Shown one piece after another: positions 575-54,550 of a stretch of DNA of 64,000 nt. The number at the start of each line of letters is the position of its first letter. Position 1 is the stretch's first letter. The DNA is from Patescibacteria group bacterium (lineage in GTDB: Bacteria > Patescibacteriota > JAQUNI01). The position numbers were made by a program, and so were the translations under genes. The notes beneath the pieces were generated by a model. The model did no database searches. It was not told where the DNA came from and saw only the letters and a program-made list of their open reading frames with translations. The DNA lies in NCBI GenBank assembly GCA_028717685.1, contig JAQUNI010000001.1, positions 207,451 through 271,450 of the forward strand, in the 5' to 3' direction.

Positions 575-1273
575 GGGTTTCACCCGATTTTGGCTCAAAT
601 AAAGCTCTTTTTTCCTGATAGGGGGTTAAACCCCTCTTTGTCTCCCCTTGTCTGGGGAGATGTTTGGATTATCCATTATTCTAAGACTATCAATAATTCT
701 TTGCTTAGGCAGAGAAGCAAGAGCGGTGAAGATCAAACAGAGTTGAATAAAAATCATCTACGATCCTCGTTGGTCTTCACCGTTTGCGGATTCAGAAATC
801 TTGTCTTGGATCCCCATCCAAAGGGGAGGAATTTTCTGAACCTTCTAAATCCCACATCACAAAAATCTGAAATTTAGAAGATTGGTGAGCTGGTTTTGCC
901 TAGGTGTTTTCTAATCCCTAGAAAAGTTACTTTCCAAATCTTGTTGGAGCAAGAATTAATTTGAATGAACATATATATAAATTTTCCCTGCCCCAACTGG
1001 ACTTGAAAATAACTTTTTTGATATTTTGTTTGAAGTGGTATTATATCATAATCGCATATTTTTGTCAAGAGTATATTCTCTTTTATAACAAAAAATGGCT
1101 TAGATAAGCCGAATTTGAATCGTGAATAATGAATCAGGAATTAGGAATTAGAGAATTTTTAATTTAGATGTCTTAATTAAACCATTGATGATTTTGTGCA
1201 CTTTTATTGTTTGTTCGGCAATTTTTAAAAAGTCCTCCTTTACAATATATCGGACATCACGAGCGATAATCAA

Positions 1274-1531
1274 TTAATTCTGCAATTCAGTAACCGATCC
1301 CTGCGCTCTAGAATAAAAACAAATTTTATCTTTATAGGTCTGACGGCTGAAACCTTCGGCAATATTAGAAGTGATTGAAACTACACAACGACGCATTTGG
1401 CTCACTAAACCAAACATCTCTTCTTTGGGAAATTTTTTGGTAATTTCGTAAACCATTAAAACTAACTTGTGCCCTTCTTTCCAAGCATCTAAATCCGTGA
1501 ATGACTTAATTTTCTTTAATTCATTATTCAT
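1274..1531 (-). CDS. four-helix-bundle protein (23S rRNA intervening-sequence protein family, PF05635-like), C-terminally truncated copy (85 aa; last helix missing)
   Basis: Family motifs DLDAWKEGHKL...LVSQMRRCVVSITSNIAEGFSRQ; paralog of the intact 118-aa copy at 11162..11518; the N-terminus MNNELKKIK is encoded by the ATTC-heptad repeat arm; possible pseudogene. Confidence 0.6.
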   Translation of the reverse strand: MNNELKKIKSFTDLDAWKEGHKLVLMVYEITKKFPKEEMFGLVSQMRRCVVSITSNIAEGFSRQTYKDKICFYSRAQGSVTELQN

Positions 1532-1558
1532 AATTCATAATTCCTGATTCATGATTCC

Positions 1559-2737
1559 CTATTCTCCCCTCAACGCTTCCACGGGATCCATCCTGCTTGC
1601 CCGAAACGCAGGATAAAGACCGGACAATAGACCCACAAGCGTGGCAAAAACAATAATACTGCCTATAAGCCACCAAGGCAGAGCGAATAAATCAACTTGA
1701 GTTTGGACAATGTTTTGCGCGGCAATGTAATTATTGAGCAGAGAACTTAAAATTAAAGTAATGCCCCAGCCACAGAGCACGCCAAAAAAACCGCCGATAA
1801 AACCAATCGCGGAAGCTTCCAAACTGAAAATTTTTAAAATGTCCCGCCGCGACGCGCCGACCGCGCGCATCACCCCAATCTCACGAGTGCGCTCTAGGGT
1901 AGCCATAATCATCGTATTGATAATCCCGAGGGAAGCGACGCCCAAGATGATAATCCCCACGCTTCCGAGAGCAAGTTCTAAAATCCTGAAATATTTGGTC
2001 ACGCGGTCAACTAAATCATCTAAAGCGACTGCTTCCAGCCCCATCCCCTTAATTTCTTTGCTAATCCCCGCGACCTTTTGCACGGAATTTGCCTTCACCC
2101 GCAGACTATCATAAGTTACCATCTTTTTAATCTCGCTCGCCTGGGTCAAAGGGATAAAAACCCCATAGCCCAAGATATTCTCTCCCCGAGCCACGCCGAC
2201 AATTTTTAAAACTAAATTCTTTTGACCGAAGGTCAGATTTAAAGATTTACCTAAAAATCTCTCCGGGTAATCGCTGGAAAACTCTTTCAAAAAATTCTCT
2301 CCTATGACAGCGCTTTCCCCTGCCAAGCTTGAAGCGGGACTACCAGCGATCAATTTAAAAACATCCGTCGCCCCTGACGGCACGGCAGTAACTAAGGTCT
2401 TGCCTACGTTTTTTTCAAAACCGCTCAAGGATACCTCATCAGCCATCAAAGTAACCATCGGATCCACCCGCGCGACATCAGGCAGGCTTTCCAGCTTGCT
2501 GATTGTTTCGGAGTCCAGAAGCCGATTCCCATCCTCTTTTTGATAAACATTAATGTCCGTTAATTCTCCTGTGTCTTTCAGGCCTTTAACGACGATCTGC
2601 TGCAAACCCACGCCCAAAGAAACCATAGAGCTAATTAAAGTCGTGCCAATAAGAATCGCGAAGGTTGTTAAAACCGTGCGCAACTTGCGGCGGCGCAGAT
2701 TTTTAAAAGAAAATAATATTGCTGAAGAAAGCTTCAT
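1559..2737 (-). CDS. ABC transporter permease, FtsX/MacB-like
   Basis: N-terminal TM helix, large periplasmic loop, C-terminal FtsX-like 4-TM block; adjacent to the cognate ATPase. Confidence 0.8.
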   Translation of the reverse strand: MKLSSAILFSFKNLRRRKLRTVLTTFAILIGTTLISSMVSLGVGLQQIVVKGLKDTGELTDINVYQKEDGNRLLDSETISKLESLPDVARVDPMVTLMADEVSLSGFEKNVGKTLVTAVPSGATDVFKLIAGSPASSLAGESAVIGENFLKEFSSDYPERFLGKSLNLTFGQKNLVLKIVGVARGENILGYGVFIPLTQASEIKKMVTYDSLRVKANSVQKVAGISKEIKGMGLEAVALDDLVDRVTKYFRILELALGSVGIIILGVASLGIINTMIMATLERTREIGVMRAVGASRRDILKIFSLEASAIGFIGGFFGVLCGWGITLILSSLLNNYIAAQNIVQTQVDLFALPWWLIGSIIVFATLVGLLSGLYPAFRASRMDPVEALRGE

Positions 2738-2800: not shown

Positions 2801-3463
2801 TTATACTATTCTCCCATCCTGCATCCTTAAAACCCGAGGCGCGATTCCCGCCGCTTCCGAATCATGGGTCACTAAAAGCACGGTGACGCCCAGGTGCTGA
2901 TTAATATAAGATAAAATCTCTAAAATCTGCTGGCTTGCCTGCGAATCCAGATTTCCTGTCGGCTCATCCGCCAAAATAATCTCTGGCCGCGTCACAAGCG
3001 CGCGCGCGATTGCTACCCGCTGGCGCTGACCTCCTGAAAGTTCACTGCCCTTATGTTCAAGCCGATCGCCTAACCCGAGCCAAGTGAGCAAGCTAGCAGC
3101 GATTTTATTTCTTTTCCTCTTGGGAACATTGGCGAATAATAAAGGCAAAGCGACATTTTCCACGGCGGTTTGCGAGGAGTCTAAATTAAACATCTGGAAG
3201 ATAAAGCCGATTTTTTGATTGCGGTAAACAGAAATAGCTTGGTCCGACAGACTAGTCAAGCAAAGCTGGTCTACAAAAATATCGCCCTGATTCGGACGAT
3301 CCAAACCGCCGATCACGTGCAAAAGAGTGGACTTTCCCGAACCTGAGGGACCCGTGATCGCCAAAAATTCACCTCGGCTGATATTCAAATTAATGCCATC
3401 CAAGGCAAAAATATTTTCTCCGCCCATCTTGTAGATTTTAGAAACATTCTGGAGGGAAATCAT
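2801..3463 (-). CDS. ABC transporter ATP-binding protein (MacB/LolD-like)
   Basis: Walker A GPSGSGKST, ABC signature LSGGQRQRVAIARAL, Walker B ILADEPTGNLD. Confidence 0.9.
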   Translation of the reverse strand: MISLQNVSKIYKMGGENIFALDGINLNISRGEFLAITGPSGSGKSTLLHVIGGLDRPNQGDIFVDQLCLTSLSDQAISVYRNQKIGFIFQMFNLDSSQTAVENVALPLLFANVPKRKRNKIAASLLTWLGLGDRLEHKGSELSGGQRQRVAIARALVTRPEIILADEPTGNLDSQASQQILEILSYINQHLGVTVLLVTHDSEAAGIAPRVLRMQDGRIV

Positions 3464-3583
3464 AACAAATTAAAAATTTAAAATGAAAAATGTAAAATTA
3501 TAACGCAAAATTTAAAATTCTTCAATTTCTTAATTTTGAATTTTGAATTGCAATTTTCAATTTTGAACTTTTAATTTTTAATT

Positions 3584-4174
3584 TTATATTCTTCCCCAAT
3601 CCAATTCCGCTGGTTTGTGGCTGCCGATTTTGTCCACTAATTTTAAATAATCACTCTTAAAAATTGTATCCACAAAACGGTCATGCATTTCCTGACGATA
3701 CAAAAATTCAGCGAGCGACACTACCGTATAATTTAACTCCTCGCCTAATCCCTCTTCTAATTTCCTCACGATACGCACGAGCGCTTTTTTATTGATCCTG
3801 CCCACAACAAACAAATCCACCGGCGAATCATCTAAACCGATGAATTTACCCGAGAGACAGGCAAACTTGATCCCCGCCAACTGCTCAATGTCCCGAGCCA
3901 ATTTACTCCCCTCCAATCCCGCCTTGAAAATCAGACGCTTTAATTCCGGATACAGTTTGAACTGATCGTTCGGGTAATAATACTTCTTGCCGTCTTCAAG
4001 ACGGCTCGTAAGAAGCCCTAATGTTTCCAGATTCGCCAGCTCAATCCGCACTGAGTTAATCTTTTCATCTAAACGGCGGGTTAATTCCCGCACATAATAA
4101 GATTGGGGCTTACCCGCCAGAAAAAGCGCCAACAGCTTCACCCTTACCTTGGAAGAAAATAATTGTTCCAGCAT
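3584..4174 (-). CDS. putative winged-helix (ArsR-like) transcriptional regulator with a C-terminal nucleotidyltransferase-like region
   Basis: N-terminal HTH-like segment KVRVKLLALFLAGKPQSYYVRELTRRL; C-terminal 'DLFVVG' nucleotidyltransferase-like motif; pattern recognition only. Confidence 0.4.
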   Translation of the reverse strand: MLEQLFSSKVRVKLLALFLAGKPQSYYVRELTRRLDEKINSVRIELANLETLGLLTSRLEDGKKYYYPNDQFKLYPELKRLIFKAGLEGSKLARDIEQLAGIKFACLSGKFIGLDDSPVDLFVVGRINKKALVRIVRKLEEGLGEELNYTVVSLAEFLYRQEMHDRFVDTIFKSDYLKLVDKIGSHKPAELDWGRI

Positions 4175-4478
4175 AGAGTTGCTTTGAACAAGTTAGTTGT
4201 TCATTTTTAATATAGCATAACAAAAATCAGAATGCAAAGCCGCCAATTCAAATTTGATATAGTTAGTCTAACCTGACATTAAATATAATAACCAACGGTT
4301 AAAGTTTTTGTAACTTGTAACCTATAACATATAACTCAAGGTCTTGTGTTACATGTCTGCCGCCAGGCAGGCAAGTTTCAAGTTATAAATTACAAAAATT
4401 AGAAATTTTCAATCCCTATCTCTTTGCATTTTTATCTCATAAATATTATAATATAAGTAAATACTTTGTGTATATCTT

Positions 4479-6788
4479 ATGTTCCAACGCTCAAGGTTAG
4501 AAATTCAAAACACCAAACTGCTAATTTCTAATCCTAAGGTGCGCGAAGGCTTGTGTAATGTTTTTATTTTTGAACCTGAAAGAGGGAAAGAAAACTTAGG
4601 AGAGCTTCTTATTCTTGTCAAAATTGAGGAAGACAACAGAGATAATCGGGAGATCGCCCAAGGAATCGTGGAAATTGTAAAAAATGAATTTTACCGCGAC
4701 GCGGAAAAAAATCCCGAAGAAAATTTAGAAGCTAGTTTGGTGAAAATTAATGAGATTCTGAAAGAGTTAGCCTCTTTAGGCAAAGTGGCTTGGGTGGGCA
4801 AGTTGGACGCAATCATCGCTTGTCTCCAAAACAAAAAGCTAATTTTAACCCAAACAGGAAAAGCCTTGTCTCTTTTGGTCCGCGATGGCGAGGCTAGTTT
4901 TATTACGGAAGGACGAGAAGAGGAAAAAGAAGGTCAACCCCTTAAAACTTTCAAGGGTTTAACCTTCGGTCTTTTGGAATCTAATGATCACCTTATTCTT
5001 TCCACTGCCACTTTATTTGATTTCTTCTCTCCGGCAAAACTCATCCAAATCCTCTGCCGCGGCACCTTAAAAGAAGCAAAAAATTATCTGGAAGAATTGC
5101 TCAAGGAGCAGATTGAGACGGAAATGGTGGGGACAATCCTTGTCTCCCTAAAACGAATCCAGTCTAAAAAATCTTTCAAACAAGAAGAAGGACAATTATC
5201 CGCTTTAGAAAAAATCGGCAGGCTTGAGGATTTCCCTGAAGCAGTGGAGATGGCAACAGAGGAAGCGGAAACTCAAACTGATTTCCTGCAAGCGGTGGAT
5301 AAAAGGCTGGAAGCAAAAAGAAGGGGTAAGTTTCCTTTTTCCCTCTTTCACACTCTCAAAAGCTCCCTCTTGATTTTAAAACAAGGAAGGCGATCTTTCT
5401 TTAAATATGCCATTAAAATACTCCAATCTCTATGGCGGTTCATCCTTTTTCCTCTCCTTCTTCTCCTTAAGAAAATATTTTCACTGTTTCCCGTCCTTTG
5501 GAAAAAACTCCTGCCCCTCTTCAGGAAAGTAAAGGGTTTCTTGGCGCGCAAAAAGATAAAAACTCCAAGCGTCACCCCCATTCAAACTAATCAGGGAATA
5601 ACCACCAAATTATCCTTTGTAAAATACATTCCGGGATTGATCAAACCGATTTCTCTCCGCCTGCAAGCTGTTCCTCTGCGAAGCAAAATAATTCTTTCCA
5701 GCCTGATCGTCGCGCTATTATTCCTTGCTTCCGGCATCATCTTCCTTAAAAAATATCATTCCCCAAAGCCCCAAGCCGCGCAAGGCGAGGAAACAATTCT
5801 CCAAGAGGCCGAGGGCAAAAGAAAAGCGGCGTTAGACGCGATGGTTTACAAAGACGAAAAGCAAGCAAGGGAACTTCTAGAAGAAGCGGACAGCCTTACG
5901 GGTCAAATTTTGGGTTCGTCCACGCATCGCGAAGAGGCAGAGAGTTTAAAAAACGCAATTGTAGAGCAATTTGACAAGATGGATAATATCACCCGCATCA
6001 CAGAACCAGCGCTTATATTTAATGTTGACCAAATTAACTCTGATTTCAATCCATTAGACTTAATTGGCTTGGAGAACGGTCTCTACGCTCTCTGCAACCC
6101 TAACAATATCATCCTCCGCCTTGACCCGCAAAAGAAAGAAGCAGTCCAACTCTCGCCCAGTTTTAATGATATAGGCTACCTCGTCCGCGCTTCCCAGATT
6201 GATCAAGGAAAAAATATCCTCTTTGTCAACGCCGATAACAAATTTTCCCTTTTTGATTTTAATTCCTTTAAAATTGAACCAATCAGCGCAGAATCCCCCT
6301 TAGAGCCCAACAATATTCAGGATTTAGCTGAATATTCCAACAAAATCTATACCCTCAATCCTAGTGAAAACCAAATCGTGAAATACACGCGCACGATTGG
6401 GGGCTTATCCAAAGGAAGCTTATGGCTTTCTGAAGGCGATATTAAAAATGGCGCTTCTTTAGCAATTGACGGCGATGCCTATGTCTTGACCCTTAATGGT
6501 GAAATCTTGAAATTTCGCGCGGGAAAACAAGTGAATTTCAATAAAGCCGCAATCCAGCCCGCTCTGGAAAAACCCACGAAAATTTTCACGCGATTAAATG
6601 ACAAAAATCTCTATCTTGTTGACCCCCCCACGCGGCGCATTATTGTTTTGGGAAAAAACACGAGCGAAGTGCTCCGCCAATTTACCTCGGACAAGTTTAA
6701 CGACCTTAAAGATATTTGGGTAGCACCGGATGAAAAAATAATTTATGTTCTGGCGGGCAAAAGCGTCTATCAGATAGAAAACAGGTGA
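4479..6788 (+). CDS. hypothetical large membrane protein (769 aa)
   Basis: Long ORF; internal hydrophobic segments (LFPLLLLLKKIFSLFPVLW; ILSSLIVALLFLASGIIFL); C-terminal repeat-like beta-rich region; no recognisable catalytic motif. Confidence 0.5.
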   Translation: MFQRSRLEIQNTKLLISNPKVREGLCNVFIFEPERGKENLGELLILVKIEEDNRDNREIAQGIVEIVKNEFYRDAEKNPEENLEASLVKINEILKELASLGKVAWVGKLDAIIACLQNKKLILTQTGKALSLLVRDGEASFITEGREEEKEGQPLKTFKGLTFGLLESNDHLILSTATLFDFFSPAKLIQILCRGTLKEAKNYLEELLKEQIETEMVGTILVSLKRIQSKKSFKQEEGQLSALEKIGRLEDFPEAVEMATEEAETQTDFLQAVDKRLEAKRRGKFPFSLFHTLKSSLLILKQGRRSFFKYAIKILQSLWRFILFPLLLLLKKIFSLFPVLWKKLLPLFRKVKGFLARKKIKTPSVTPIQTNQGITTKLSFVKYIPGLIKPISLRLQAVPLRSKIILSSLIVALLFLASGIIFLKKYHSPKPQAAQGEETILQEAEGKRKAALDAMVYKDEKQARELLEEADSLTGQILGSSTHREEAESLKNAIVEQFDKMDNITRITEPALIFNVDQINSDFNPLDLIGLENGLYALCNPNNIILRLDPQKKEAVQLSPSFNDIGYLVRASQIDQGKNILFVNADNKFSLFDFNSFKIEPISAESPLEPNNIQDLAEYSNKIYTLNPSENQIVKYTRTIGGLSKGSLWLSEGDIKNGASLAIDGDAYVLTLNGEILKFRAGKQVNFNKAAIQPALEKPTKIFTRLNDKNLYLVDPPTRRIIVLGKNTSEVLRQFTSDKFNDLKDIWVAPDEKIIYVLAGKSVYQIENR

Positions 6789-6944
6789 ATTTTTAATTTT
6801 TATTCCTTATTTTTTAACTAATTTTTATTGAATTATTGTTTTATTTGTGATGTCAATAAAAATTTCTGCCCAAGGCGGATCAGCCTAGGGCTGAAAGAAA
6901 CAAAAATTCGTTAAAAATTAAAAATCAAAAAATAAAAATTATAA

Positions 6945-6968
6945 AAACAGCCTCTTAACGCTGTTTTT
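6945..6968. terminator. bidirectional intrinsic terminator between the 4479..6788 gene and the convergent sortase gene
   Basis: Hairpin AACAGC-CTCTTAAC-GCTGTT flanked by A-run and T-run. Confidence 0.55.
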
Positions 6969-8698: not shown

Positions 8699-8702
8699 GG
8701 AT

Positions 8703-8950
8703 TTGGAATTATGAATTAGGAATAGTGAATCAGGAATAACGAATTAGGAAGAATAAAATAAAGCCTTTTCCCAAGGCTTTATTCAAATATAAAAAAGTGG
8801 ATTCTTGCCTACACGAGATTTACCAAGCGGCTCACACCGCCCTACTCGTGGTCTTGGGAAGCATATGTATTATACACTGGCAGAATAAACTGTCAACCTT
8901 AAGGGGATTAGGAATTATGAATATTTTTATATTCCTGATTCATGATTCCT
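8703..8950. repeat. heptad-repeat palindromic element (GAATNAG arms, ~150 nt GC-richer core), empty copy between mltG and rplJ
   Basis: Left arm gaattatgaattaggaatagtgaatcaggaataacgaattagg; right arm ggaattatgaat...attcctgattcatgattcctgattcatt; core includes hairpin aaagcctt/aaggcttt. Confidence 0.7.
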
Positions 8951-8957
8951 GATTCAT

Positions 8958-9971
8958 TTACGGAAGATATTTTTGCTTATTTAAATTGTGCTCCTGCAAG
9001 TTTTTGGAAAAAACAACGGGTTGTCCTTCCGGATGCAGAAAATACAAATAGTCCGTCTCTTCGGGGTAAATCGCCGCTCTTATCGCGGCTAAACCTGGGT
9101 TGCAGATCGGACCTGGCGGCAATCCCTTGTAACGATAAGTATTGTAGCGCGAATCCATTTGAACATCCTCTAAAGTAGGCTGGCGCGATTTTTTACCGGT
9201 CACGTAATTCACCGTGGCGTCGGATTCCAAAGAACGGTCCAATTCAAGGCGGTTATAAAATACCCCCGCGATCTTCGGCATTTCCTCTTCGTTAGCCGAT
9301 TCTTTTTCCACAATGCTCGCCATAATTAAAATATCATATAAACTCTTTCCCTGCCTCTCTATCTCCACCAAAAGATCAGACCCAACTTTCTTTTGAAAAT
9401 TTGCCAACATCTTTTTCAAAAGATCTACCGCGGCTTGATCCTTGTAAACCCGATAAGTATCGGGAAACAAAAAACCTTCCAGGGAAGATTCCGGAGGTGC
9501 CTCAAAACGATCAGCGAAGATGCTGTCTTTAAAACCGCGGGTTGCGACAATGAAATCGTCTCGCTCAATAAGCTTTAACCCCGCTAAATACTGGTCAATA
9601 TCCTGCCGATCCCAACCTTCAATAATTGTAATATCTATCTCCTTGGGCTCTGGTTTGCCAGTCAAAACGCGGACAGTTTCGGGGATATTAATCTTGGGTG
9701 GCAATTTGAACTCACCCGCCTTAAAATCTTTCTCTCTCTTCTCTGTCCAGACATAGACTTCAAAATACCAAGCATCGCGAATAAAACCTTCCTTTTGCAA
9801 ATTGCCGGCAATCTCTTTTACTCCCTGACCTTCCGCAATCGCAAATTGCCGCGTCCCCTCGCTCTCGTTAAAAGATCTGTGGATCTGCCATTCAATGTAA
9901 AGTAAACCCGACAGCGCGGCGAATAAAAATAGAATTGTAAAAAAAATAACGGAACGAAATATTGTCTTCAT
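8958..9971 (-). CDS. mltG: endolytic murein transglycosylase MltG (YceG-like)
   Basis: N-terminal TM; YceG signature ...YNTYRYKGLPPGPICNPGLAAIRAA... Confidence 0.85.
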   Translation of the reverse strand: MKTIFRSVIFFTILFLFAALSGLLYIEWQIHRSFNESEGTRQFAIAEGQGVKEIAGNLQKEGFIRDAWYFEVYVWTEKREKDFKAGEFKLPPKINIPETVRVLTGKPEPKEIDITIIEGWDRQDIDQYLAGLKLIERDDFIVATRGFKDSIFADRFEAPPESSLEGFLFPDTYRVYKDQAAVDLLKKMLANFQKKVGSDLLVEIERQGKSLYDILIMASIVEKESANEEEMPKIAGVFYNRLELDRSLESDATVNYVTGKKSRQPTLEDVQMDSRYNTYRYKGLPPGPICNPGLAAIRAAIYPEETDYLYFLHPEGQPVVFSKNLQEHNLNKQKYLP

Positions 9972-10024
9972 ATATTGGAATCAGGAATAATGAATTAGGA
10001 ATCAGGAATAGAAAATATTCATAA

Positions 10025-11104
10025 TCACAAATACTTCTTCTGCCCATTCTTCTCCAATGTCTCCACAATCTTTTTTACATCCTGCGACCGATCCTTGGGA
10101 CAGATTAACAAAATATCTTCCGTGTCAATAACCACCATATCGCGCATACCGATAGTAGCCACTAATTTTTTAGCGGGCGCATAAATTAAACTGCCGTCCG
10201 TATCCAAACCAACGTGATGGCACTTGATGTAATTCTCGGCTTGGCCGTGCGTCAAAATTTCCTTGACCGCCTGCCATTGCCCCACATCAGACCAGCCAAA
10301 TTCAGCGGGAATGGTTAAAATATTTTTGGTTTTTTCCACAATGCCATAGTCCACGGAGATGGGCTTAATCTTGCTGTACTCTTGGTTTAAAACTTTTTTT
10401 TCTTCCTTTGTGCCAATGGCTTTCTGAATCTTCCTTAATTTTTTATAAGTGTCGGGAAGATATTTTTCAAAAAGCGCGACCAAGGACTTCGCTTTCCAAA
10501 AAAACATCCCCGAATTCCATAAATATTGGCCTGAAGCGATATAGCGTTGGGCGGTTTTTAAATCCGGTTTTTCCACAAAACGTTTCACATAATAAACAGC
10601 GTCCTTGCCTCGCTTTTTTAAAAGACGGCTGCGTTCAATATAGCCATAGCCGGTTTCAGGATAAGCCGGATTCATGCCCAAAATCACCGTGTATTCCGGC
10701 CTCTCCGCAACAATCTGTTCAGCCAATTTTGCCACCCGGCGGTATTCATCTTCATCCAGAATATAATGGTCAGAGTAGACGCAAGACATCACTGCCTCCG
10801 GATCCCGTTTTTCCAAAATCATTGCCGCGAGGCCTAGAGCTGCCGCTGTATCTTTGCGTTCCGGCTCCAAAGAAAAATTGGAAAGCGAAAGAGAAGGAAG
10901 TTGTTTTCTAATATCCTTAAAATTTTTCCGCCCCGTGGTAATGAGGATATGTTTTTTATCCACGGCTTTGGCTAGACGGGTGAAAGTTTTTTGTAAAAGC
11001 GTGCGGTTGCCAATAATGGCTTGGGATTGTTTGGGTTTAGCCTTGCGGCTTACAGGCCAAAGGCGCGTCCCCGTTCCGCCCGCCATAATCACGGCGTAGA
11101 ACAT
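10025..11104 (-). CDS. mannose-1-phosphate guanylyltransferase-like sugar nucleotidyltransferase
   Basis: Nucleotidyltransferase G-loop AVIMAGGTGTRLWP; the track ORF extends to 11152, but Met17 (MFYAVIMAGG) is the likelier start. Confidence 0.75.
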   Translation of the reverse strand: MFYAVIMAGGTGTRLWPVSRKAKPKQSQAIIGNRTLLQKTFTRLAKAVDKKHILITTGRKNFKDIRKQLPSLSLSNFSLEPERKDTAAALGLAAMILEKRDPEAVMSCVYSDHYILDEDEYRRVAKLAEQIVAERPEYTVILGMNPAYPETGYGYIERSRLLKKRGKDAVYYVKRFVEKPDLKTAQRYIASGQYLWNSGMFFWKAKSLVALFEKYLPDTYKKLRKIQKAIGTKEEKKVLNQEYSKIKPISVDYGIVEKTKNILTIPAEFGWSDVGQWQAVKEILTHGQAENYIKCHHVGLDTDGSLIYAPAKKLVATIGMRDMVVIDTEDILLICPKDRSQDVKKIVETLEKNGQKKYL

Positions 11105-11585
11105 AGAAATAAAGTTAAAAGGTAAAGTGCAAAGTGCAAAACTAAAGCGCAAAGTTCAAAATTATTTCCTTCCCTTAAGAGTTAGTAAGCTTGCTCCGAG
11201 TATTTTTGCTAGTTCCTCTACTTCTTTTAGAAGTAAACTAATTTCTTCCTTTGGGAATTTAGTCGCATCTCTTAGTAAACCTAACCAATACTTTGTTTCG
11301 TTTGCTGACTTTAAGGCAATTTCATAAAATCTAGTAAAATCCCTTTTAGAACTCGCAGCCTGGGCTTCTATAATGTTTGCTCCTACTGAAGTAGCTGATC
11401 TCAAAAGTTGATCTGCAATTATCCGAAAAATATTTTGGCTAGGTAATTTACTAACAAATTTAATAATCTGAATTGAAAAATAATATGCACGATATTTAAG
11501 TTGTTGTTTAACTTCCATAACTTTTACGCTTTAAGCTGTGGTTTTGCCTTTTGCACTTTGCCTTTTGCACTTTTACTAATGGCAC
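11105..11585. mobile_element. heptad-palindromic element carrying a four-helix-bundle protein gene (inverted GCAAAGT/ACTTTGC repeat arms flank the cargo ORF)
   Basis: Left arm aaggtaaagtgcaaagtgcaaaactaaagcgcaaagttcaaaa; right arm gccttttgcactttgccttttgcactttt; inserted between manC-like and pcm, overlapping the pcm stop by 11 nt. Confidence 0.5.
11162..11518 (-). CDS. four-helix-bundle protein (23S rRNA intervening-sequence protein family), intact 118-aa copy
   Basis: Family motifs ...LLRSATSVGANIIEAQAASSKRDFTRFYEIALKSANETKYWLGLL... Confidence 0.8.
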   Translation of the reverse strand: MEVKQQLKYRAYYFSIQIIKFVSKLPSQNIFRIIADQLLRSATSVGANIIEAQAASSKRDFTRFYEIALKSANETKYWLGLLRDATKFPKEEISLLLKEVEELAKILGASLLTLKGRK

Positions 11586-12901: not shown

Positions 12902-13222
12902 ATAATAAATACCTCCCACCCCCTCTTAATCAGAGGGTAAAAATCCTTGCTTTTTTTCTTTAGATATGATATAATATAACCATCAAGTACAAAGAGCTCG
13001 CCCCGTGTTTAAAGCGAGCTTTTCGGCTTTTTAGGGATGTCGTTCGAACGACATTCTAAAGACATCCTAAAGAACGGTGAGACCCGCCTCCGCTAAAGCT
13101 TCCCCCTTCGCTCACAAGCTTCGGGGGACAAGTCGGAGGGTGAGACCCGCCTGAAGCCGACTACGGCGAAGTAAATCAAAACAAAAAATATCCTGCTCCA
13201 AAATAAGGGTAGGACACATAAA

Positions 13223-14644
13223 ATGAATACCAAAACCATTCTCAAATGGTGCGTGCCGCGCAAGAACAATCAATACCAACCTTACGCTCTGCGTAAAAAG
13301 GCGCTTACCTTTTATGTCGCCGTGATTTTCATACTGAAGGCGAGCGTCGGTTTTTTGTTTTTCGCTTTTCCGGAAACCGCCTATCTCTCCCAAGTGAGCA
13401 TTAAAGAAATCGTAGACCTCGCGAACCAATCCCGCGCCGAGGTAGGCCTTGCTCCCCTTAAACTGAATGCCAAATTAAATATCTCGTCCGCGGGAAAAGC
13501 CGAAGATATGATGACGAAACAATACTTTGCCCATACCTCGCCCGAGGGCGTGGAGCCTTGGTATTGGTTTGAGAAAGCGGGCTATCCCTACACCTATGCG
13601 GGAGAAAATTTGGCTCTCGGTTTTGAAACAAGCGCGGGCGTGCATCAAGCCTGGATGAATTCTAAAGGTCATCGCGACAATATTATCAATCCTAATTACA
13701 AAGAGATTGGCGTCGCGATTATTTACGGCAGTTTTGAAGGCAATTTCACCACGATTATTGTTCAGCATTTCGGCTCTGTTGAATCCACAACTCCCCAAGA
13801 AGTCCCTGCCTATCCGCCTCCGAAAAAAGAAATACCCGCGCCGACCGCTCCGCCTCAAACTCCCGCTGGTGCCGACCGCACGGCTCCCGCTCCCCCGCGC
13901 ATTCTTACTCCCGCTCCCCGCTACCTGACGAATAATAAAGAAGTGACCATCACGGGACAAGCCGAAGCGGAAAGCACGGTTTTAATCTATGAAAAGAACG
14001 AAAAGATCGGCCAGACCAAAGCTACTAAAAAGAACCGCTTTAATTTTGCTTCCGCCTCTGATTTTTCCGATGGCGAACATTCTTTCCGCGCCATGGCGGT
14101 AGATAAAGCAGGAAACCGCAGCGCTTTCTCTAAAAGCGTGGCGGTGGTCATTGACACAACTCCGCCGGTGATTGATATGGAAAAATCATATATCCTGCCT
14201 ACTTATCTTAATCCGCTTAAAACCTTTGATGTCTTCGCTTATGTGACTGGCGAACCGGTGGAAGTCAAAGCCACTGCCGGTCAAAACGAGGTTATGCTCA
14301 AGGAAAAAGAGGCGCATCTCTATCGCGAAGTCATTAACCAATCCACTGGCGGGGTTTGGGTTCAAGCAAAAGATGCCGCCGGCAATATTACCAAAGCAAA
14401 ATTAAACTTTACCCAAAATGTCAGCAGTGAGCGCGACCTGCATCTGGTAGACTCCGACAATAGCTGGACGCTTTTCTTAAACACACTGGATCAAACTAGC
14501 CGCAATCTTATTATAGTCTTTAGCGCCGCGATTGCGATTCTTCTGCTTGTAAATATTCTTGTGCATATCAAAAAACAAAACAGTAAAACCATCAGCTCTG
14601 TCCTGCTGATTATCCTTATTAACGGTCTTCTCCTGGCGGTTTAA
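13223..14644 (+). CDS. secreted/membrane-anchored CAP (SCP/PR-1, YkwD-like) domain protein with Pro-rich linker, Ig-like region and C-terminal TM
   Basis: CAP motifs ...HTSPEGVEPWYWFEKAGY...GENLA...HQAWMNSKGHRDNIINPNYKEIGVAI...; PAYPPPKKEIPAPTAPP linker; C-terminal hydrophobic helix. Confidence 0.7.
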   Translation: MNTKTILKWCVPRKNNQYQPYALRKKALTFYVAVIFILKASVGFLFFAFPETAYLSQVSIKEIVDLANQSRAEVGLAPLKLNAKLNISSAGKAEDMMTKQYFAHTSPEGVEPWYWFEKAGYPYTYAGENLALGFETSAGVHQAWMNSKGHRDNIINPNYKEIGVAIIYGSFEGNFTTIIVQHFGSVESTTPQEVPAYPPPKKEIPAPTAPPQTPAGADRTAPAPPRILTPAPRYLTNNKEVTITGQAEAESTVLIYEKNEKIGQTKATKKNRFNFASASDFSDGEHSFRAMAVDKAGNRSAFSKSVAVVIDTTPPVIDMEKSYILPTYLNPLKTFDVFAYVTGEPVEVKATAGQNEVMLKEKEAHLYREVINQSTGGVWVQAKDAAGNITKAKLNFTQNVSSERDLHLVDSDNSWTLFLNTLDQTSRNLIIVFSAAIAILLLVNILVHIKKQNSKTISSVLLIILINGLLLAV

Positions 14645-14746
14645 TCTTGGTTATTCTTGGGGTTTTTAAAGTCGGAGCCTCAAAATAACAATAGTAAAAC
14701 CCGCCTTCGTCTAATAGACTTCGGCGAGGTAAAACAAAAACAAAAA

Positions 14747-14776
14747 AACACCCTTAAATAAGTAAGAGGGTGTTTT
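14747..14776 (+). terminator. intrinsic terminator (AACACCCT...AGGGTGTTTT family)
   Basis: Hairpin aacacccttaaataagtaagagggtgtttt; a near-identical hairpin lies at 19937..19965 after the last gene of the SipW locus. Confidence 0.6.
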
Positions 14777-14790
14777 AATTATTAAAAATA

Positions 14791-14925: not shown

Positions 14926-15092
14926 TTTAAAGAAACTGTGAACAACTTAAAACAAAAAACGCCTTTAAATAAACAAGAGAGTGTTTTAATAAAGCGAAAG
15001 GCGAAAAGTGTAAAACGTAAAACCGCAACTTAAAGCTCAAAGCTTTACACTTTGCGCTTTGCACTTTGCGCTTTCATCTGTGGATAACTTTT

Positions 15093-19936: not shown

Positions 19937-19965
19937 AACACCCCTAAAGAATAAGAGGGTGTTTT
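19937..19965 (+). terminator. intrinsic terminator (AACACCCC...AGGGTGTTTT family)
   Basis: aacacccctaaagaataagagggtgtttt; same stem and loop family as 14747..14776. Confidence 0.6.
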
Positions 19966-19968
19966 AAT

Positions 19969-20093
19969 TAATTTTCAATTTTCATTAAATTTTCAATGTA
20001 TTAATTTTCAAACTTTTTTGTTGATGAAAGTTTTTAAAAATTAAAAATTAAAAGAATTTAATAGAAATTAGAAATTGAAAATTAAAAATTATT
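19969..20093. repeat. heptad-repeat palindromic element (TTTCAAT / GAAATTA arms)
   Basis: aattttcaattttcattaaattttcaatg ... aatttaatagaaattagaaattgaaaattaaaaatta. Confidence 0.6.
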
Positions 20094-20431
20094 CGTCTGT
20101 GGATAACTTTCTTGAATCAAATCTTAAACAAAAATATAATAAAAGTGCGTGTTTCCGCTAGTGTCAAATATTGTCATGCCGTTCTTTCGCTCCTTAGCGT
20201 CTAGCGCCAAAAGGAGCAATTGCTTATCCGCCTTTTTAGGACAAAGGCGGACACCATGCCTCTTGGAGAACTTATATTTTTTATGCGCGTGTTGAGTAAG
20301 TTTTCCAAGAGCGCTTTTTTTTGACAAAAAAAATTAAAAATGGTATTATAGAAAGGCTTTATTCTAAGAACTTGTTATTATTCTTGCTATTATTTTGGTA
20401 CATTTTATTTCAAAAATAAGGAGAGCAAAAA

Positions 20432-22371: not shown

Positions 22372-22380
22372 GAAAATAAA

Positions 22381-22494
22381 ATTTCTAATTTTCAATTTCT
22401 AATTTCTATTAAATTTTCAATGAATCAATTTTTAGGCAGTTTAAAAATTAAGAAATTAGAAATTTAATAAAAATTAAGAAATAAAAATTAAAAA
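22381..22494. repeat. heptad-repeat palindromic element (TTTCTAAT / GAAATTA arms) between tRNA-Trp and rpmG
   Basis: atttctaattttcaatttctaatttctattaaattttcaatg ... aaattagaaatttaataaaaattaagaaataaaaattaaaaatta. Confidence 0.6.
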
Positions 22495-22656
22495 TTATTT
22501 CTTTACTTCTTTATGCAAGATGTGCTTGCGGCAATGGCGGCAGTATTTTTTTAATTCCAGTTTTTTCGCCTGCGGATCCTTCTTGTTGCGGCGGGTGAAA
22601 TAATTGATATTCTTGCACGCCGTGCATTGCAGGCGAACTAAAGTTTTTTGGGGCAT
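22495..22656 (-). CDS. rpmG: 50S ribosomal protein L33
   Basis: Not in the ORF track (53 aa); translation [53 protein letters not shown] with the L33 Cys4 zinc ribbon; the conserved rpmG/tRNA-Trp neighbourhood is present. Confidence 0.85.
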
Positions 22657-22767: not shown

Positions 22768-22864
22768 TAAAAAGGAATCATATATTATGAATCAGGAATT
22801 ATGAATGGGGAAAATTATGAATAAAAAAAATAATTCATTATTCCCGATTCCCTATTCCTTATTC

Positions 22865-22947
22865 CATGATTGTGGGGAGAGCAGGATTTGAACCTGCGTA
22901 GCCCGAAGGCGCGAGTTTTACAGACTCGAGCAATTGACCACTCTGCC
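22865..22947 (-). tRNA. tRNA-Tyr (anticodon GUA), long variable arm
   Basis: Acceptor GGGGAGA/TCTCCCC, anticodon loop CTGTAAA, long variable arm, T-loop TTCAAAT. Confidence 0.75.
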
Positions 22948-23092
22948 ATCTCCCCGTCTTCAAGTTAAAAGTCCAGAGTTCAAAATTCAAAGTTGAATCC
23001 AAAGTTCAAAGTTAAATTCCTGAGATTTTAAATTTTTAACTGTAACTTTTAACTTTGCACTTTGAACTTTTAACTATTTTTGAGCCGAGGAG

Positions 23093-23164
23093 AGGATTCG
23101 AACCCCCAACCTTGGCTTTACAAAAGCCCTGCTCTACCTTTGAGCTACCTCGGCAAAAGGGAAT
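23093..23164 (-). tRNA. tRNA-Thr (anticodon UGU)
   Basis: Acceptor GCCGAGG/CCTCGGC, D-arm GCTC-AAAGGTA-GAGC, anticodon loop TTTGTAA, T-loop TTCGAAT. Confidence 0.75.
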
Positions 23165-23248
23165 AATGAATCAGGAATTATGAATGAGGAAAATTATGAA
23201 TAAAAAAAATAATTCATTATTCTCCAATTACCAATTACTAATTACAGA

Positions 23249-24205
23249 TTACTGATTACCCTTAATCTTCCTCTGTTTTTCTAAAAGCTCAATATATTTA
23301 TAATTACCAGGATATGCTTTCACCAGTTCTTCATAGGTTCTTACTGTTTTATCAATATTGTTCTGATTGCGATACATCTTGCCTAATTCTAAGTAAAAAT
23401 ACTCTTTGGAGCGGTTCTTTTTAATCGCCCGACGATAAATTTTTTCCGCCTCCTTCATCTTACCTTCCTCAGTATAAGCGAATCCTAACTTCCTATAAAC
23501 ATCAATTTCGTCCGCTCCTCTTTTCAAGGCTTCTCGAAAAGAAGATTCGGCATCGCGAAAATTTCCCTGCTCAAAATAAAGAGTGCCCAATATTTTGTAA
23601 ACTTGGGCATTTTTAGGACTCTTGCGAATGACGGAAAAACAAATCTTTTCTGCCGCTTTGAAGTGTTTTATTTTAACAGCATTTTGAGCATCGGTCAACA
23701 ACTCTTCCAAGCTTAACTCTTCCTGCTCTTCCCGCTTTAAAAGCGCGGAGGGAATTTCCACTTTGACCTCTCTGGCTTTGAACCCTTGGGACGTAAATGG
23801 TTTCGGCTTTCTTAACCTCCGTGCTTCTTGCTCATCCCCTGCCCGCATTAATATTTTTTCTTCCTGTTGAATTTTTTCGTTTTGATATGGTATTTTTTGC
23901 TTGTTTTTTCTTCTCGCCTCGATGAGCCCTTTAATTCTACCTCCCAAGGCTTTCAGCCCCCTCCTGCATAAAACCAAAATTTTTTTTGCCGCTCCTCCGC
24001 CCTTCCGAGCAACGGACAAAATAAAATACCATATATGAGGCAGACACGTTTTAAAAACCGCTAAAACTGTTTTTCTATTTTTTCTCGGCTTTGATACCGC
24101 ATCTATTTTTAACTCTCGGACCTCGGGCAACTTCCGACCTAAAATCACAACAATACCCGCCAGCGCTAAAACAATTACGAATTGAGGAATGATCTCGTAA
24201 ATCAT
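23249..24205 (-). CDS. membrane-anchored TPR-repeat protein
   Basis: N-terminal TM; C-terminal TPR-like repeats (..YKILGTLYFEQGNFRDAESSFREALK.., ..YRKLGFAYTEEGKMKEAEKIYRRAIK..). Confidence 0.6.
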   Translation of the reverse strand: MIYEIIPQFVIVLALAGIVVILGRKLPEVRELKIDAVSKPRKNRKTVLAVFKTCLPHIWYFILSVARKGGGAAKKILVLCRRGLKALGGRIKGLIEARRKNKQKIPYQNEKIQQEEKILMRAGDEQEARRLRKPKPFTSQGFKAREVKVEIPSALLKREEQEELSLEELLTDAQNAVKIKHFKAAEKICFSVIRKSPKNAQVYKILGTLYFEQGNFRDAESSFREALKRGADEIDVYRKLGFAYTEEGKMKEAEKIYRRAIKKNRSKEYFYLELGKMYRNQNNIDKTVRTYEELVKAYPGNYKYIELLEKQRKIKGNQ

Positions 24206-27062: not shown

Positions 27063-27123
27063 TATTTGTTTTGACCCCGTTAGAAACATGCCCCGCCCCG
27101 TTAGAAAAAATTTTCTAACGGGG
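27063..27123. repeat. 'CCCCGTTAGAAA' palindrome (12-bp perfect arms) with a partial extra half-site, between rpmE and prfA
   Basis: gaccccgttagaaacatgccccgccccgttagaaaaaattttctaacggggttgac; same arm sequence recurs at 32404, 36153-36232 and 51957. Confidence 0.7.
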
Positions 27124-28287: not shown

Positions 28288-28289
28288 AA

Positions 28290-28385
28290 GTTCAAAATTC
28301 AAAGTTGAGTTTCAAATTAAAAGCTTTAAGATTATTAACTTTAAATTTTTAATTCAACTTTTCACTTTGCACTTTGAACCTTTAA
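28290..28385. repeat. heptad-repeat palindromic element (AAAGTTC / ACTTTGC arms) between prfA and prmC
   Basis: aaagttcaaaattcaaagttgagtttcaaatt ... caacttttcactttgcactttgaacctttaact; near-duplicate of 22962..23090. Confidence 0.6.
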
Positions 28386-28395
28386 CTAGAACAAT

Positions 28396-29265: not shown

Positions 29266-29276
29266 TGGTGCCCTAA

Positions 29277-29452
29277 GTTATTTATTTTGTCATTGCGAGG
29301 AGGGCTTATAGTCAGATCCCTCGCTTCCGCTCGGGACAGGCTCCGTAATCTCATCGAGCTATATTTATACAGATCTAGGAGATTGCTTCGGGCTCCGCCT
29401 AGGGCGGATCCCTCGCAATGACGGTATATTTCGTAATTCAAGGTAGGCTACG
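29277..29452. mobile_element. MITE-like GC-rich element with ~40 nt terminal inverted repeat (ACCTTGAATTACGAAAT...TGTCATTGCGAGGAGGG), copy A
   Basis: Right end ccctcgcaatgacggtatatttcgtaattcaaggtagg; internal ggagattgcttcg and gctcgatgagattacggagcctgtcccgagcggaagcgaggg shared with the copies at 34232 and 50212; no ORF. Confidence 0.6.
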
Positions 29453-29454
29453 AA

Positions 29455-32396: not shown

Positions 32397-32403
32397 ATTT
32401 GTA

Positions 32404-32436
32404 AACCCTGTTAGAAATTTATTTCTAACAGGATGA
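32404..32436. repeat. 'CCTGTTAGAAAT' palindrome immediately upstream of the rplY start
   Basis: ccctgttagaaatttatttctaacagg. Confidence 0.6.
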
Positions 32437-33007: not shown

Positions 33008-33105
33008 TCTTATAACTTAAAACCTATAGCTTGTAACTCAAGGAGGGAAATACAGATGCTAAGTCTTGAAATCTTGGGTTACACGTTATAAGTTACAAGT
33101 TACAT
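33008..33105. repeat. GTTACAA/GTTATAA heptad inverted-repeat element (core TGTAACTCAAGG...CTTGGGTTACA)
   Basis: cttataacttaaaacctatagcttgtaactcaaggagggaaatacagatgctaagtcttgaaatcttgggttacacgttataagttacaagttacat; related copies at 4300-4400, 40293-40370, 50898-50975. Confidence 0.65.
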
Positions 33106-34223: not shown

Positions 34224-34231
34224 AAAAACCT

Positions 34232-54545: not shown

Positions 54546-54550
54546 ACACA

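Follow-up and report, generated by a model that had tools for sequence, protein, structure and literature searches.

The stretch of DNA considered here, referred to as the window, comprises 64,000 nucleotides of a Patescibacteria group bacterium (GenBank assembly GCA_028717685.1, contig JAQUNI010000001.1, positions 207,451 to 271,450 of the forward strand). Gene calling gave 64 open reading frames (ORFs); internal spacers with a length of 40 nt or more number 45, and the intergenic share of the window amounts to 17%. The focal element fills the entire spacer (3464-3583) between the gene of a LolD-like ABC ATPase (2801-3463) and an ORF at 3584-4174, and consists of two facing arms of degenerate 7-nt units, designated heptads. 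About 25 copies in the window, the focal one included, are ORF-less, and two others enclose a small gene of the Pfam family PF05635 between their arms. We regard it as rather probable that the heptad arrays form the arms (terminal inverted repeats) of small stem-loop elements that are selfish, belong to the intervening sequence (IVS) type, and are MITE-like (MITE, miniature inverted-repeat transposable element). The focal element and the two gene-bearing cassettes are as follows:

3464-3583, no strand assigned: focal element, ORF-less heptad palindrome, an AAAATNN arm followed by an NNATTTT arm
11104-11585, minus strand: full-length family-C cassette between the PCMT gene and a ManC-like gene, composed of a left arm (11519-11585), a gene (11162-11518, 118 aa) and a right arm (11104-11161)
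1105-1565, minus strand: family-B cassette with a decaying gene, arms at 1105-1170 and 1508-1565, PF05635 ORF at 1274-1531

An earlier description made from the letters alone, termed here the sequence-only reading, had claimed that the intergenic repeats of this DNA have a 7-nt period, and the signal indeed rises above background. In the pooled spacers, the fraction of identical bases at lag 7 is 0.339 compared to 0.283 in 200 dinucleotide-preserving shuffles, and the autocorrelation relative to these shuffles has z values of 12.2, 6.1, and 4.0 at lags 7, 14, and 21, respectively; in coding DNA, the sole signal is that of period 3. Arrays of at least three copies, called with Tandem Repeats Finder (TRF), number 43 at period 7 versus 1-5 at each of the periods 5, 6, 8, and 9. 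The intergenic 17% of the window holds 85% of the array bases, and the units match at 70-85%, i.e. the arrays are degenerate and not runs of identical units. All 26 instances listed in the earlier description are periodic (lag-7 identity 0.39-0.71 vs 0.19-0.39 at control lags; z 1.9-7.9); for the focal element, TRF reports period 7, and its lag-7 identity is 0.68 (z=7.0). The statement that nearly every spacer is filled with such units was too strong, as TRF finds at least 21 nt of period-7 array in 20 of the 45 spacers of at least 40 nt. The same period stands out in 160 related loci (270 arrays, vs 61-77 for periods 6 and 8), where opposed heptad arrays with lineage-own unit types occur in many lineages of the candidate phyla radiation (CPR).

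Two pairs of the listed instances turned out not to be separate elements: 11105-11160 and 11521-11585 are the arms of a single cassette around a small gene, and the same is true of 1111-1167 and 1512-1560. The product of ORF 11162-11518 matches PF05635 (E=1.7e-24), TIGR02436 (96.6 bits, cutoff 24), and the pentameric structures 2RLD (PDB, E=7e-16) and 2GSC, both of which contain five chains, and that of ORF 1274-1531 matches PF05635 (E=2.2e-27) and TIGR02436 (83.9 bits, cutoff 24). PF05635 is named '23S rRNA-intervening sequence protein' and TIGR02436 'four helix bundle protein'. ORF 1274-1531 contains an in-frame TAA, behind which the frame runs on to about position 1168 and into the arm; it is a decaying copy and an apparent intermediate towards ORF loss. 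In both cassettes, the arms are mutually complementary and, when the ORF is taken out, are collinear in alignment with the window's ORF-less palindromes of families C and B. The focal element aligns heptad by heptad, landmark AAAAYYAYAACGYAAAA included, with the cassette arms of the window and of two related loci, L176 and L181, and therefore is an ORF-less member of the PF05635-carrying family. It aligns in the same manner with ORF-less palindromes of loci L081 and L170 and of the window (14983-15082). On the basis of this homology, which was shown for families B and C, the ORF-less palindromes of the window appear to be stripped-down copies of PF05635 cassettes.

The boundaries of the cassette genes deserve some comment. 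At 11508-11585, the last ~19 codons of the PCMT ORF (231 aa, with a Pfam match ending at residue 212) lie within the left heptad arm; the original C-terminus of PCMT, together with its stop codon, was apparently replaced when the cassette inserted. In L176, L179, and L181, annotated N-terminal 'extensions' of the PF05635 genes are translated arms. Carriage of the PF05635 protein of the window by phages was rejected, as IMG/VR contains no close relative of it, and membership in a defence system was rejected after PADLOC gave no match.

Cassettes of the same construction occur in other Patescibacteria and on plasmids. PF05635 ORFs with inverted heptad arms are located at the nusG|rplK junction in L003 (TTTAGGT / AACCTAA) and L008 (AACCGTN / AATCGGT) and at the pheS|pheT junction in L122, and these junctions are sites of ORF-less elements in the window. 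Homologues of the window protein number 3635 at E <= 1e-5, the top 120 being 64-79% identical, and all six further genomic contexts fetched for homologues of the ivp2 clade show heptad arms with an AAAG core (AAAGNNN). In L176, an AAAG-armed cassette is nested within A-like outer arms, and in L170-L174 the cassette is followed by an ORF-less palindrome, of which strains that do not otherwise differ have either one copy or two in tandem. Among 72,556 plasmids, tblastn matched 34 records, nearly all from Cyanobacteria, the others from Bacteroidota, Chloroflexota, Spirochaetota, and Bacillota. The 14 plasmid homologues inspected all have tandem heptamers on both flanks, as judged by eye, and most of these are clearly inverted; examples are the arms of the cassettes of N. 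punctiforme (GTCGGAG x4 and CGACYTC x5), Aulosira (TTCAAAA x4 and TTTTGAA x5), and Euhalothece (CCAGTKA and TCACTGG x12). Plasmid cassettes are usually found between adjacent operon genes (drmD|MmeI, hsdS|hsdR, cas2|cas1, RND adaptor|permease), and within 100 kb of two carrier plasmids almost all period-7 arrays adjoin a four-helix-bundle gene.

For a quantitative comparison, 21 cassettes were scored (13 Patescibacteria loci and the first 8 plasmid samples). A strict filter, which demanded that both flanks be periodic and complementary, missed arms that were irregular or situated more than 90 nt from a truncated ORF, and a wider-flank statistic was used. At least one strongly periodic flank is present in 17 of the 21 cassettes versus 8.5% of 1944 control genes, and both flanks are strongly periodic in 11 of the 21 versus 0.8% of the controls (Fisher p=1e-16). 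Inverted heptamer arrays are thus strongly associated with the gene of the four-helix-bundle 'IVS protein' across phyla.

The element families of the window were found by a direct-repeat search and alignment and are represented by 2-9 copies each, of 63-260 nt. Family A has the layout AATTTYY ... RRAAATT with the non-periodic landmark CATTAAATTTYYAATGA (8 copies aligned), family B consists of GGAATNA/TGAATNA units with a 14-nt super-period, and the units of families C, D, and E are AAAGTKC, GTAATYA/AATTACC, and GTTAYAA, respectively. The general unit pattern is a conserved core of 4-5 nt plus 2-3 free positions. A purine-rich consensus, as proposed earlier, is found for families B and C and does not apply to family A, which is T-rich and then A-rich. 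Apart from the three elements given above, the window contains the following ones, to which no strand is assigned:

14983-15082: ORF-less family-C palindrome, collinear with the ivp2 arms, AAAACCGCAACTTAAAGC included
22956-23081: ORF-less family-C palindrome filling the tRNA-Thr/tRNA-Tyr spacer; fold z=-3.0
28279-28395: ORF-less family-C palindrome between prfA and prmC; fold z=-4.3
2738-2800: single-arm or partial C-like array between the ABC ATPase gene and that of its permease; repeat family D8
22768-22871: ORF-less family-B palindrome (GGAATNA/TGAATNA) in the tRNA-Tyr/tRNA-Thr spacer; repeat family D17
23155-23260: ORF-less family-B palindrome (23155-23225) plus family-D arm (23224-23260); repeat families D16 and D17
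8699-8957: family-B arm (8699-8755) plus small B palindrome (8895-8957), upstream of rplJ
9972-10024: single arm of family B that fills the spacer upstream of the YceG gene
19960-20100: family-A palindrome, AATTTYY ... RRAAATT with CATTAAATTTYYAATGA, behind a G+C terminator-like hairpin
22372-22497: family-A palindrome between rpmG (L33) and tRNA-Trp; fold z=-7.3
41544-41753: family-A palindrome with enlarged core, upstream of thrS
51871-52046: family-A palindrome between a kinase-like gene and thyA, with a G+C hairpin of the CCCCGTTAGAAA type nested in its core
54546-54680: family-A palindrome in the rplK/rplA spacer, beginning at the stop codon and ending 4 nt ahead of the ATG; Shine-Dalgarno sequence absent
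55107-55246: family-A palindrome between nusG and rplK, sharing the 139-nt identity with 54546-54680; repeat family D7
58271-58385: family-A palindrome between pheT and gyrB; fold z=-5.4 and -6.5
60453-60615: A-like palindrome carrying a G+C-rich insert, in the pheS/pheT spacer
6789-6945: A-like palindrome, T-rich and then A-rich heptads, in a convergent spacer; repeat families D1 and D3
39741-39855: family-D palindrome (GTAATYA ... AATTACC) directly after dnaE; fold z=-4.9
4297-4414: family-E palindrome (TTGTAAC ... GTTAYAA) whose core contains a G+C hairpin; the spacer is a divergent one
33008-33105: family-E palindrome upstream of an FtsW/RodA gene; repeat family D18
40305-40370: family-E array; repeat family D18
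50898-50975: family-E palindrome between thyA and folA; fold z=-4.0

Copies differ from one another by indels of 7 or 14 nt, and their cores are variable, some of them containing nested G+C-rich hairpins (51871-52046, 60453-60615). The two family-A copies flanking rplK share an identical sequence of 139 nt that extends from the stop codon up to 4-5 nt ahead of the next ATG, and the genes on either side of them are unrelated. Within family B, the palindrome at 23155-23225 is a 97% copy of 22784-22843, and at 8699-8957 a 140-nt core with a G+C hairpin separates the arm from the palindrome. The families are lineage-specific. The family-A landmark is hardly found beyond the window and L081: it is absent from 151 of the 160 related loci, it is found at an orthologous element solely in L081, and the other matches are single.

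RNA folds of 12 elements gave z values of -1.6 to -7.3, mostly between -3 and -7, with z=-3.7 on the plus strand for the focal element, and the palindromic layout with facing arms described earlier thus reappears as long imperfect hairpins. Most elements fold into imperfect hairpins of 40-60 bp (26-72 paired bases per element), which extend from the stop codon to the start codon of the spacer. The stems are A.U-rich, have a mismatch about every 7 nt, and lack a G+C clamp. In about 13 of 17 co-directional spacers, the outermost helix begins 0-8 nt past the stop codon, and 3-16 nt separate its end from the following start codon. Elements are located inside units that are normally co-transcribed (nusG|rplK|rplA, pheS|pheT|gyrB, prfA|prmC, thyA|folA), and in the cluster tRNA-Thr, tRNA-Tyr, tRNA-Thr, rpmG, tRNA-Trp every spacer contains one. 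All copies lie between protein-coding or tRNA genes; the window holds no rRNA gene, and Rfam at gathering thresholds recognizes four tRNAs and no other RNA family in it.

These properties bear on the earlier suggestion that the repeats act as transcription terminators or insulators between transcription units, which we consider highly improbable. The hairpins are situated after stop codons, the 3' arm is U-rich in families B and C, and the elements at 14983-15082 and 19960-20100 are flanked by a terminator-like hairpin and a promoter-like TTGAC...TATAAT, but intrinsic terminators consist of a short G+C-rich stem and a U tract, whereas the stems in the window are A.U-rich, periodically mismatched, and unclamped, and family A ends with an A-rich arm. 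Moreover, the elements interrupt nusG|rplK|rplA, pheS|pheT, prfA|prmC, and the tRNA cluster, all of them normally co-transcribed, and distinct G+C-rich hairpins with T runs are present where termination is expected, in some cases right beside an element.

Genes behind heptad elements have no Shine-Dalgarno sequence, while other genes of the window have strong GGAGG sites. Some genes appear to be leaderless or nearly so (39862-39893, 4440-4481), and a TTGCTA-17 nt-TATAAT sequence upstream of ORF 39891-40304 ends 8 nt before its ATG. Automatic ORF calls overran into elements: pheT starts at the ATG at 60452-60450 and not at the TTG at 60479, and rplA at the ATG at 54545 and not at the TTG at 54551.

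A comparison with close relatives shows how rapidly the elements turn over. Judged by GyrB, the nearest relatives are metagenome-assembled genomes of Patescibacteria, of which L001 is 80% identical and others, labelled Kerfeld-, Moran-, Buchanan-, Falkow-, and Portnoybacteria, are 55-66% identical; the metagenome contigs L081 (95% at the amino acid level) and L082 (90%) are closer. The dnaE gene of the window is not of the cyanobacterial type. On these two grounds, GyrB kinship and dnaE type, an origin from a cyanobacterium with the classical heptamer repeats of that phylum, which G+C content and heptamers had suggested at first, was rejected. Flanking genes are ~92%, 80%, and 70% identical at the DNA level across the close relatives, and the good synteny with L081, L082, and L001 makes orthologous spacers directly comparable. 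The presence/absence differences that the sequence-only reading had proposed to look for were seen as occupied and empty orthologous sites (L001, L082). The pheS|pheT spacer holds a 163-nt A-like element in the window and a different, C-like palindrome in L081, where the flanks are ~92% identical; in L082 and L001 it measures just 7 and 29 nt, respectively. Between pheT and gyrB, the family-A element of the window recurs in L081 with a 37-nt G+C-rich insertion, L082 has a different heptad palindrome with the same outer ends, and L001 has two heptads only. The nusG|rplK spacer measures 140 nt in the window versus 9 nt (empty) in L001. The 135-nt rplK|rplA spacer of the window, devoid of a Shine-Dalgarno sequence, corresponds in L001 to a called spacer of 27 nt with a GAGGA Shine-Dalgarno sequence, which is preceded by a single family-C arm entering the end of the rplK ORF.

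We consider it very unlikely that the elements are selected intercistronic RNA structures serving as processing sites, as stabilisers, or as bridges from stop to start codon for translational coupling in the absence of a Shine-Dalgarno sequence. Such a function would be in line with stems spanning the distance from stop to start codon, with the missing Shine-Dalgarno sequences behind elements and GGAGG elsewhere, with the occupation of every spacer of the tRNA cluster, and with the heptad palindromes that precede gyrB in L081, L082, and several more distant loci as they do in the window; for TAACTGA repeats, a translational role was proposed by MacGregor (2015, PMC4679880). The same junctions, however, are element-free spacers of 3-29 nt in L001 and L082, an unrelated family replaces an element at 92% flank identity, and neither a sense-strand G.U bias nor more than minimal covariation is apparent.

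In L081, the 37-nt G+C-rich mini-insertion (CTGGCTTTGCCAGATCTCGCACAGCGAGAC...) lies at 9866-9902 in the left arm of the element upstream of gyrB. L082 contains an extra 210-aa gene (12931-13563) between nusG and rplK, where the window holds a family-A element. By comparison, the heptad-free spacer at 62042-62311 (270 nt) is conserved: it is part of a block aligning at 93% with L081 and has counterparts of 274 nt in L082 and 175 nt in L001. It includes promoter-like TTGACA...TATAAT sequences and is probably a real regulatory region or a small RNA.

The repeats might also be neutral simple sequence repeats (SSRs), with DNA-polymerase slippage, to which Mrazek and coworkers (2007) attributed the surplus of heptamers in bacteria, giving rise to 7-nt duplications in A+T-rich spacers and template switching to inverted pairs, and hence without element identity, mobility, or function. 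Heptamers are described as the commonest class of long SSRs in many bacteria (Mrazek 2007, as cited in PMC4679880), copies differ by 7- or 14-nt indels, the units are lineage-specific and can differ around similar proteins, and strand asymmetry is absent. We nevertheless judge this explanation quite unlikely, since non-periodic landmarks are common to copies at no fewer than seven loci, copies identical over 139 nt occupy two loci with unrelated flanks, the arrays are degenerate, a relative with 92%-identical flanking genes carries another family at the same site, and the association with one gene family has a p value of 1e-16.

Another possibility, contained in the sequence-only reading, is that the arrays are binding sites for a heptad-reading protein, such as the PF05635 toroid, a ribbon-helix-helix (RHH) repressor of the omega/pSM19035 type, or an RNA binder of the cold-shock or S1 type, which would organise the DNA or control the flanking genes. 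The omega repressor of pSM19035, which binds 7-bp WATCACW repeats in direct and inverted orientation, provides a precedent for the period, whereas the motifs of the window are unlike WATCACW, and no RHH gene was found beside the window arrays. The units with their conserved core and free positions, the absence of strand asymmetry, which is compatible with a duplex DNA target, the typical arm length of 4-8 units, and the retention of AAAG-core units by the whole ivp2 clade across genomic contexts agree with this possibility, and the associated protein family is pentameric (2RLD and 2GSC; Lin 2006, as cited in PMC4990558). We rate it as unlikely all the same. At least five unit families within 64 kb face two PF05635 genes, one of them broken; the proteins of N. 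punctiforme (flanking unit GTCGGAG) and Dolichospermum (GTAATTC) are 76% identical; none of the genes beside the arrays is a candidate for a DNA-binding regulator; and the arrays are dispensable in close relatives.

According to the reading that we prefer, that of IVS-type, MITE-like elements, a full-length element consists of two inverted arrays of ~4-8 degenerate heptamers around a PF05635/TIGR02436 gene of ~120 aa, and most copies in this genome are ORF-less miniatures whose arms face each other over a short core. On transcription, the arms would pair to an imperfect, A.U-rich stem of 40-60 bp, and the insert would be looped out of the precursor. By analogy to 23S rRNA IVSs, RNase III probably cuts within the stem, which would remove the insert and separate the flanking RNAs. 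We propose that insertion into operons is cheap for this reason and that copies accumulate; elements between cistrons and tRNAs would be tolerated owing to their folding out and to their probable cleavage by RNase III. The arms would grow and shrink in 7-nt steps via slippage. Within short evolutionary distances, copies come and go, are exchanged for those of another family, and take up insertions of other small repeats. The unit length may be set by polymerase slippage (Mrazek 2007, as cited in PMC4679880), by the register of the pentamer, or by something else.

A number of points weigh against this reading. No ORF-bearing copy of family A, D, or E is present in the 64 kb, and the link of these families to PF05635 is suggested by analogy and by one nested case, L176. 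PF05635 is not among the known transposases, and the 64 ORFs of the window include no gene for a transposase, a reverse transcriptase, or RNase III. The IVS-type model gives no reason for the 7-nt unit. Target-site duplications are not demonstrable in such A+T-rich repeats; AATTTTT, present at either end of the pheS|pheT element, is also the sequence of the 7-nt empty site in L082, but this is a single case in A+T-rich periodic sequence. Folding shows no strand asymmetry (mean of -27.9 kcal/mol for sense vs -29.2 kcal/mol for antisense, Wilcoxon p=0.54), and since both strands fold equally well, there is no sign of RNA-level selection on the transcribed strand; counts of G.T vs A.C in the arm alignments are likewise unbiased, although blurred by several possible heptad registers. 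Covariation in family A is slight, with compensatory changes in 2 of 26 pairs, and an argument for conserved RNA structure on this basis was dropped as the pairs are too few. The PF05635 loci were chosen by the length of the carrying sequence or by match rank and do not represent a blind census. Finally, the proteins of N. punctiforme and Dolichospermum are 76% identical and yet flanked by unrelated heptamers, and therefore ORF and arms need not always travel together: either the arms evolve very fast in place or the ORF moves separately, and the palindromes could have existed first, with the ORF as a secondary guest.

Among known systems, the closest is the IVS of 23S rRNA in its versions with an S23p ORF (Ralph and McClelland 1993). 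IVSs of this kind (Leptospira, Coxiella, Brucella, Xanthomonas-type protein) share with the elements of the window a long stem formed from terminal inverted repeats, a loop ORF of ~120 aa for a PF05635 four-helix bundle (present in two window elements), tandem heptamers of variable copy number directly upstream of the ORF (a feature known from Coxiella only), short ORF-less versions, ORF decay, a sporadic, horizontal-looking distribution, and the reputation of being selfish. In the IVS of Coxiella burnetii, the terminal inverted repeats constitute the stem and the S23p (PF05635) ORF lies in the loop, two to three tandem heptamers (GACAGAT), the number of which varies between strains, precede the ATG directly, RNase III excises the IVS within the stem, and the ORF is decaying (Warrier et al. 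2016, PMC4990558). In rRNA genes of the CPR, too, PF05635 ORFs have been reported, along with short insertions lacking an ORF (PMC11270868). Unlike IVSs, which sit in helix 25 or helix 45, the window elements are all outside rRNA; they occur by the dozen per 64 kb, have heptads throughout the stem on both sides, and fall into several arm families, and excision by RNase III without religation, demonstrated for IVSs, is inferred for them. The window elements thus have the structural features of ORF-bearing IVSs and differ in not being located in 23S rRNA.

The suggestion of REP/MITE-like mobile elements (REP, repetitive extragenic palindrome) holds in the main. Dispersed families, non-periodic landmarks, copies identical over 139 nt, occupied and empty sites, and ORF-bearing masters support mobility, whereas the ORF encodes a PF05635 four-helix bundle and no transposase, and the nearest kind is the rRNA IVS and not REP. 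With MITEs, enterobacterial repetitive intergenic consensus (ERIC) sequences, and intergenic repeat units (IRUs), the window elements share imperfect palindromes of 100-180 bp, many dispersed copies, transcribed intergenic sites, insertion polymorphism between strains, and a hairpin RNA likely to be an RNase III substrate, as it is for Correia elements. The window arms, in contrast, are 7-nt periodic inside, Rfam shows no sequence relation, the ORF-bearing relatives encode PF05635 only, and target-site duplications are not clear; the elements are MITE-like in behaviour but have no transposase-encoding parent. REP sequences and bacterial interspersed mosaic elements (BIMEs), which are G+C-rich palindromes of 20-40 nt served by a Y1 transposase, the REP-associated tyrosine transposase (RAYT), differ from the A+T-rich stems of at least 100 nt seen here, and the window contains no RAYT/IS200-like gene. 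The accessory protein Avd of diversity-generating retroelements (DGRs) belongs to the same superfamily of four-helix-bundle pentamers, and weak hits to PF22296 (bAvd-like) and NF033474 were obtained, but the score is 20 bits compared to the Avd family cutoff of 80, and no reverse transcriptase, template, or variable repeat is nearby. The superfamily kinship is discussed in PMC10053308.

Tandem heptamers have been targets for fingerprinting for decades (PCR on short tandemly repeated repetitive sequences, STRR-PCR), and there is no accepted origin or function for them. Mazel reportedly described the cyanobacterial STRR units CCCCAGT, TTGGTCA, and CAACAGT in 1990, and Elhai and coworkers are said to have dealt in 2008 with small dispersed repeats in heptamer arrays of Nostoc. 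TAACTGA repeats occur in Beggiatoaceae, Cyanobacteria, and Bacteroidota (MacGregor 2015, PMC4679880), and Xanthomonas has about 70 convergent inverted pairs of GGGAATC/GGGGAYT repeats able to form stem-loops (Rehm 2015, PMC4692102). Like these, the arrays of the window are intergenic, have a 7-nt unit, mixed types per genome, and 7-nt indels, and are absent at the same site in close relatives. Unlike them, they are short, degenerate, and form complete palindromes that fill spacers, and both phylum and units are different (AATTTYY, GGAATNA, AAAGTKC, GTAATYA, and GTTAYAA in Patescibacteria, compared to the cyanobacterial STRR). A literature search of limited reach returned nothing on heptad repeats in Patescibacteria and no connection between heptamer arrays and PF05635/TIGR02436 except for a local remark in the Coxiella paper. 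In the accessible portions of the published heptamer-repeat studies, no link to PF05635/TIGR02436 or IVSs was found, and 'S23' occurs 0 times in that of PMC4692102.

It is conceivable, though we rate it as improbable, that the scattered bacterial heptamer repeats (STRR, TAACTGA, GGGAATC) are arms or relics of one IVS-like PF05635 class, whose pentamer would bind or measure the units, one per subunit, and thereby aid excision, protection, or spread; the window would then represent an extreme case with mostly ORF-less copies and about half of its spacers colonised. The link between heptamers and PF05635 offers one testable model for both, namely a stem-loop cassette that RNase III may excise, together with its ORF-less miniatures. 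From Patescibacteria to Cyanobacteria, cassettes sit between the cistrons of operons, among them operons for defence and for ribosomal proteins as well as tRNA clusters. The highly reduced CPR genomes thus tolerate a heavy load of selfish intergenic hairpins within essential operons, which bears on the processing of polycistronic RNA and on translation starts lacking a Shine-Dalgarno sequence in these bacteria. In practical terms, ORF calls run into arms, as for the C-terminus of PCMT and the N-terminal 'extensions' of PF05635 proteins, and heptad repeats can break metagenomic assemblies.

Several plasmid cassettes lie in or beside defence or mobile-element genes (L185, L188/L193 of Planktothrix p1, L195, L199, L200), the junctions being drmD|MmeI of a DISARM locus, cas2|cas1, and hsdS|hsdR. 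On pNPUN01 of N. punctiforme (L185), an XisH gene is located directly downstream of the four-helix-bundle cassette; similar taxonomic distributions of TAACTGA repeats and XisH/XisI were pointed out by MacGregor (2015, PMC4679880). In L198, a plasmid of Chondrinema litorale (Bacteroidota), the downstream arm at ~631-780 holds TTACTGTTAACTGATCACTGAAAAACTGTA and hence the TAACTGA heptamer. An array of AATCGTA x28.6 at 23470-23669 of L193 lies between drmA and a DUF1998 gene of the same DISARM operon and is annotated as a 'hypothetical protein' on the opposite strand.

Other repeats in the window do not belong to the heptad families. Hairpins with a G+C clamp, CCCCGTTAGAAA...TTTCTAACGGGG, are present at 27075-27123, 32400-32435, 36156-36232, 51953-51990, and 41690-41720. 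A terminator-like hairpin, AAACACCC...GGGTGTTTTAAT, occurs in three copies (14745-14790, 14955-14990, 19937-19968), and two hairpins of this kind precede a heptad palindrome, which is followed by CTGTGGATAACTTT (15079, 20098), resembling the DnaA box TGTGGATAAC, and a promoter-like TTGAC...TATAAT. The gene at 48649-50160, suspected to be dnaA from nearby TGTGGATAAC-like boxes, was rejected as such, as Pfam identifies it as GatB (gatB). A third class of spacer repeats comprises long G+C-rich palindromes, GTCATTGCGAGGAGGGC...CCCTCGCAATGAC, flanked by CCTTGAATTACGAAAT (29266-29454, 34224-34510, 50161-50388), and the copy at 50161-50388 forms an 83-pair hairpin in the arm alignment. Heptads are also found inside genes: prmC contains a perfect GAATCAG x4.3 array of 30 nt (29102-29131), which is in frame and encodes ..RIRNQESGIR.., and a MiaB-like ORF contains AAACTCA x7.7 (44306-44358), an insertion of ~18 aa in the region of the radical-SAM domain.

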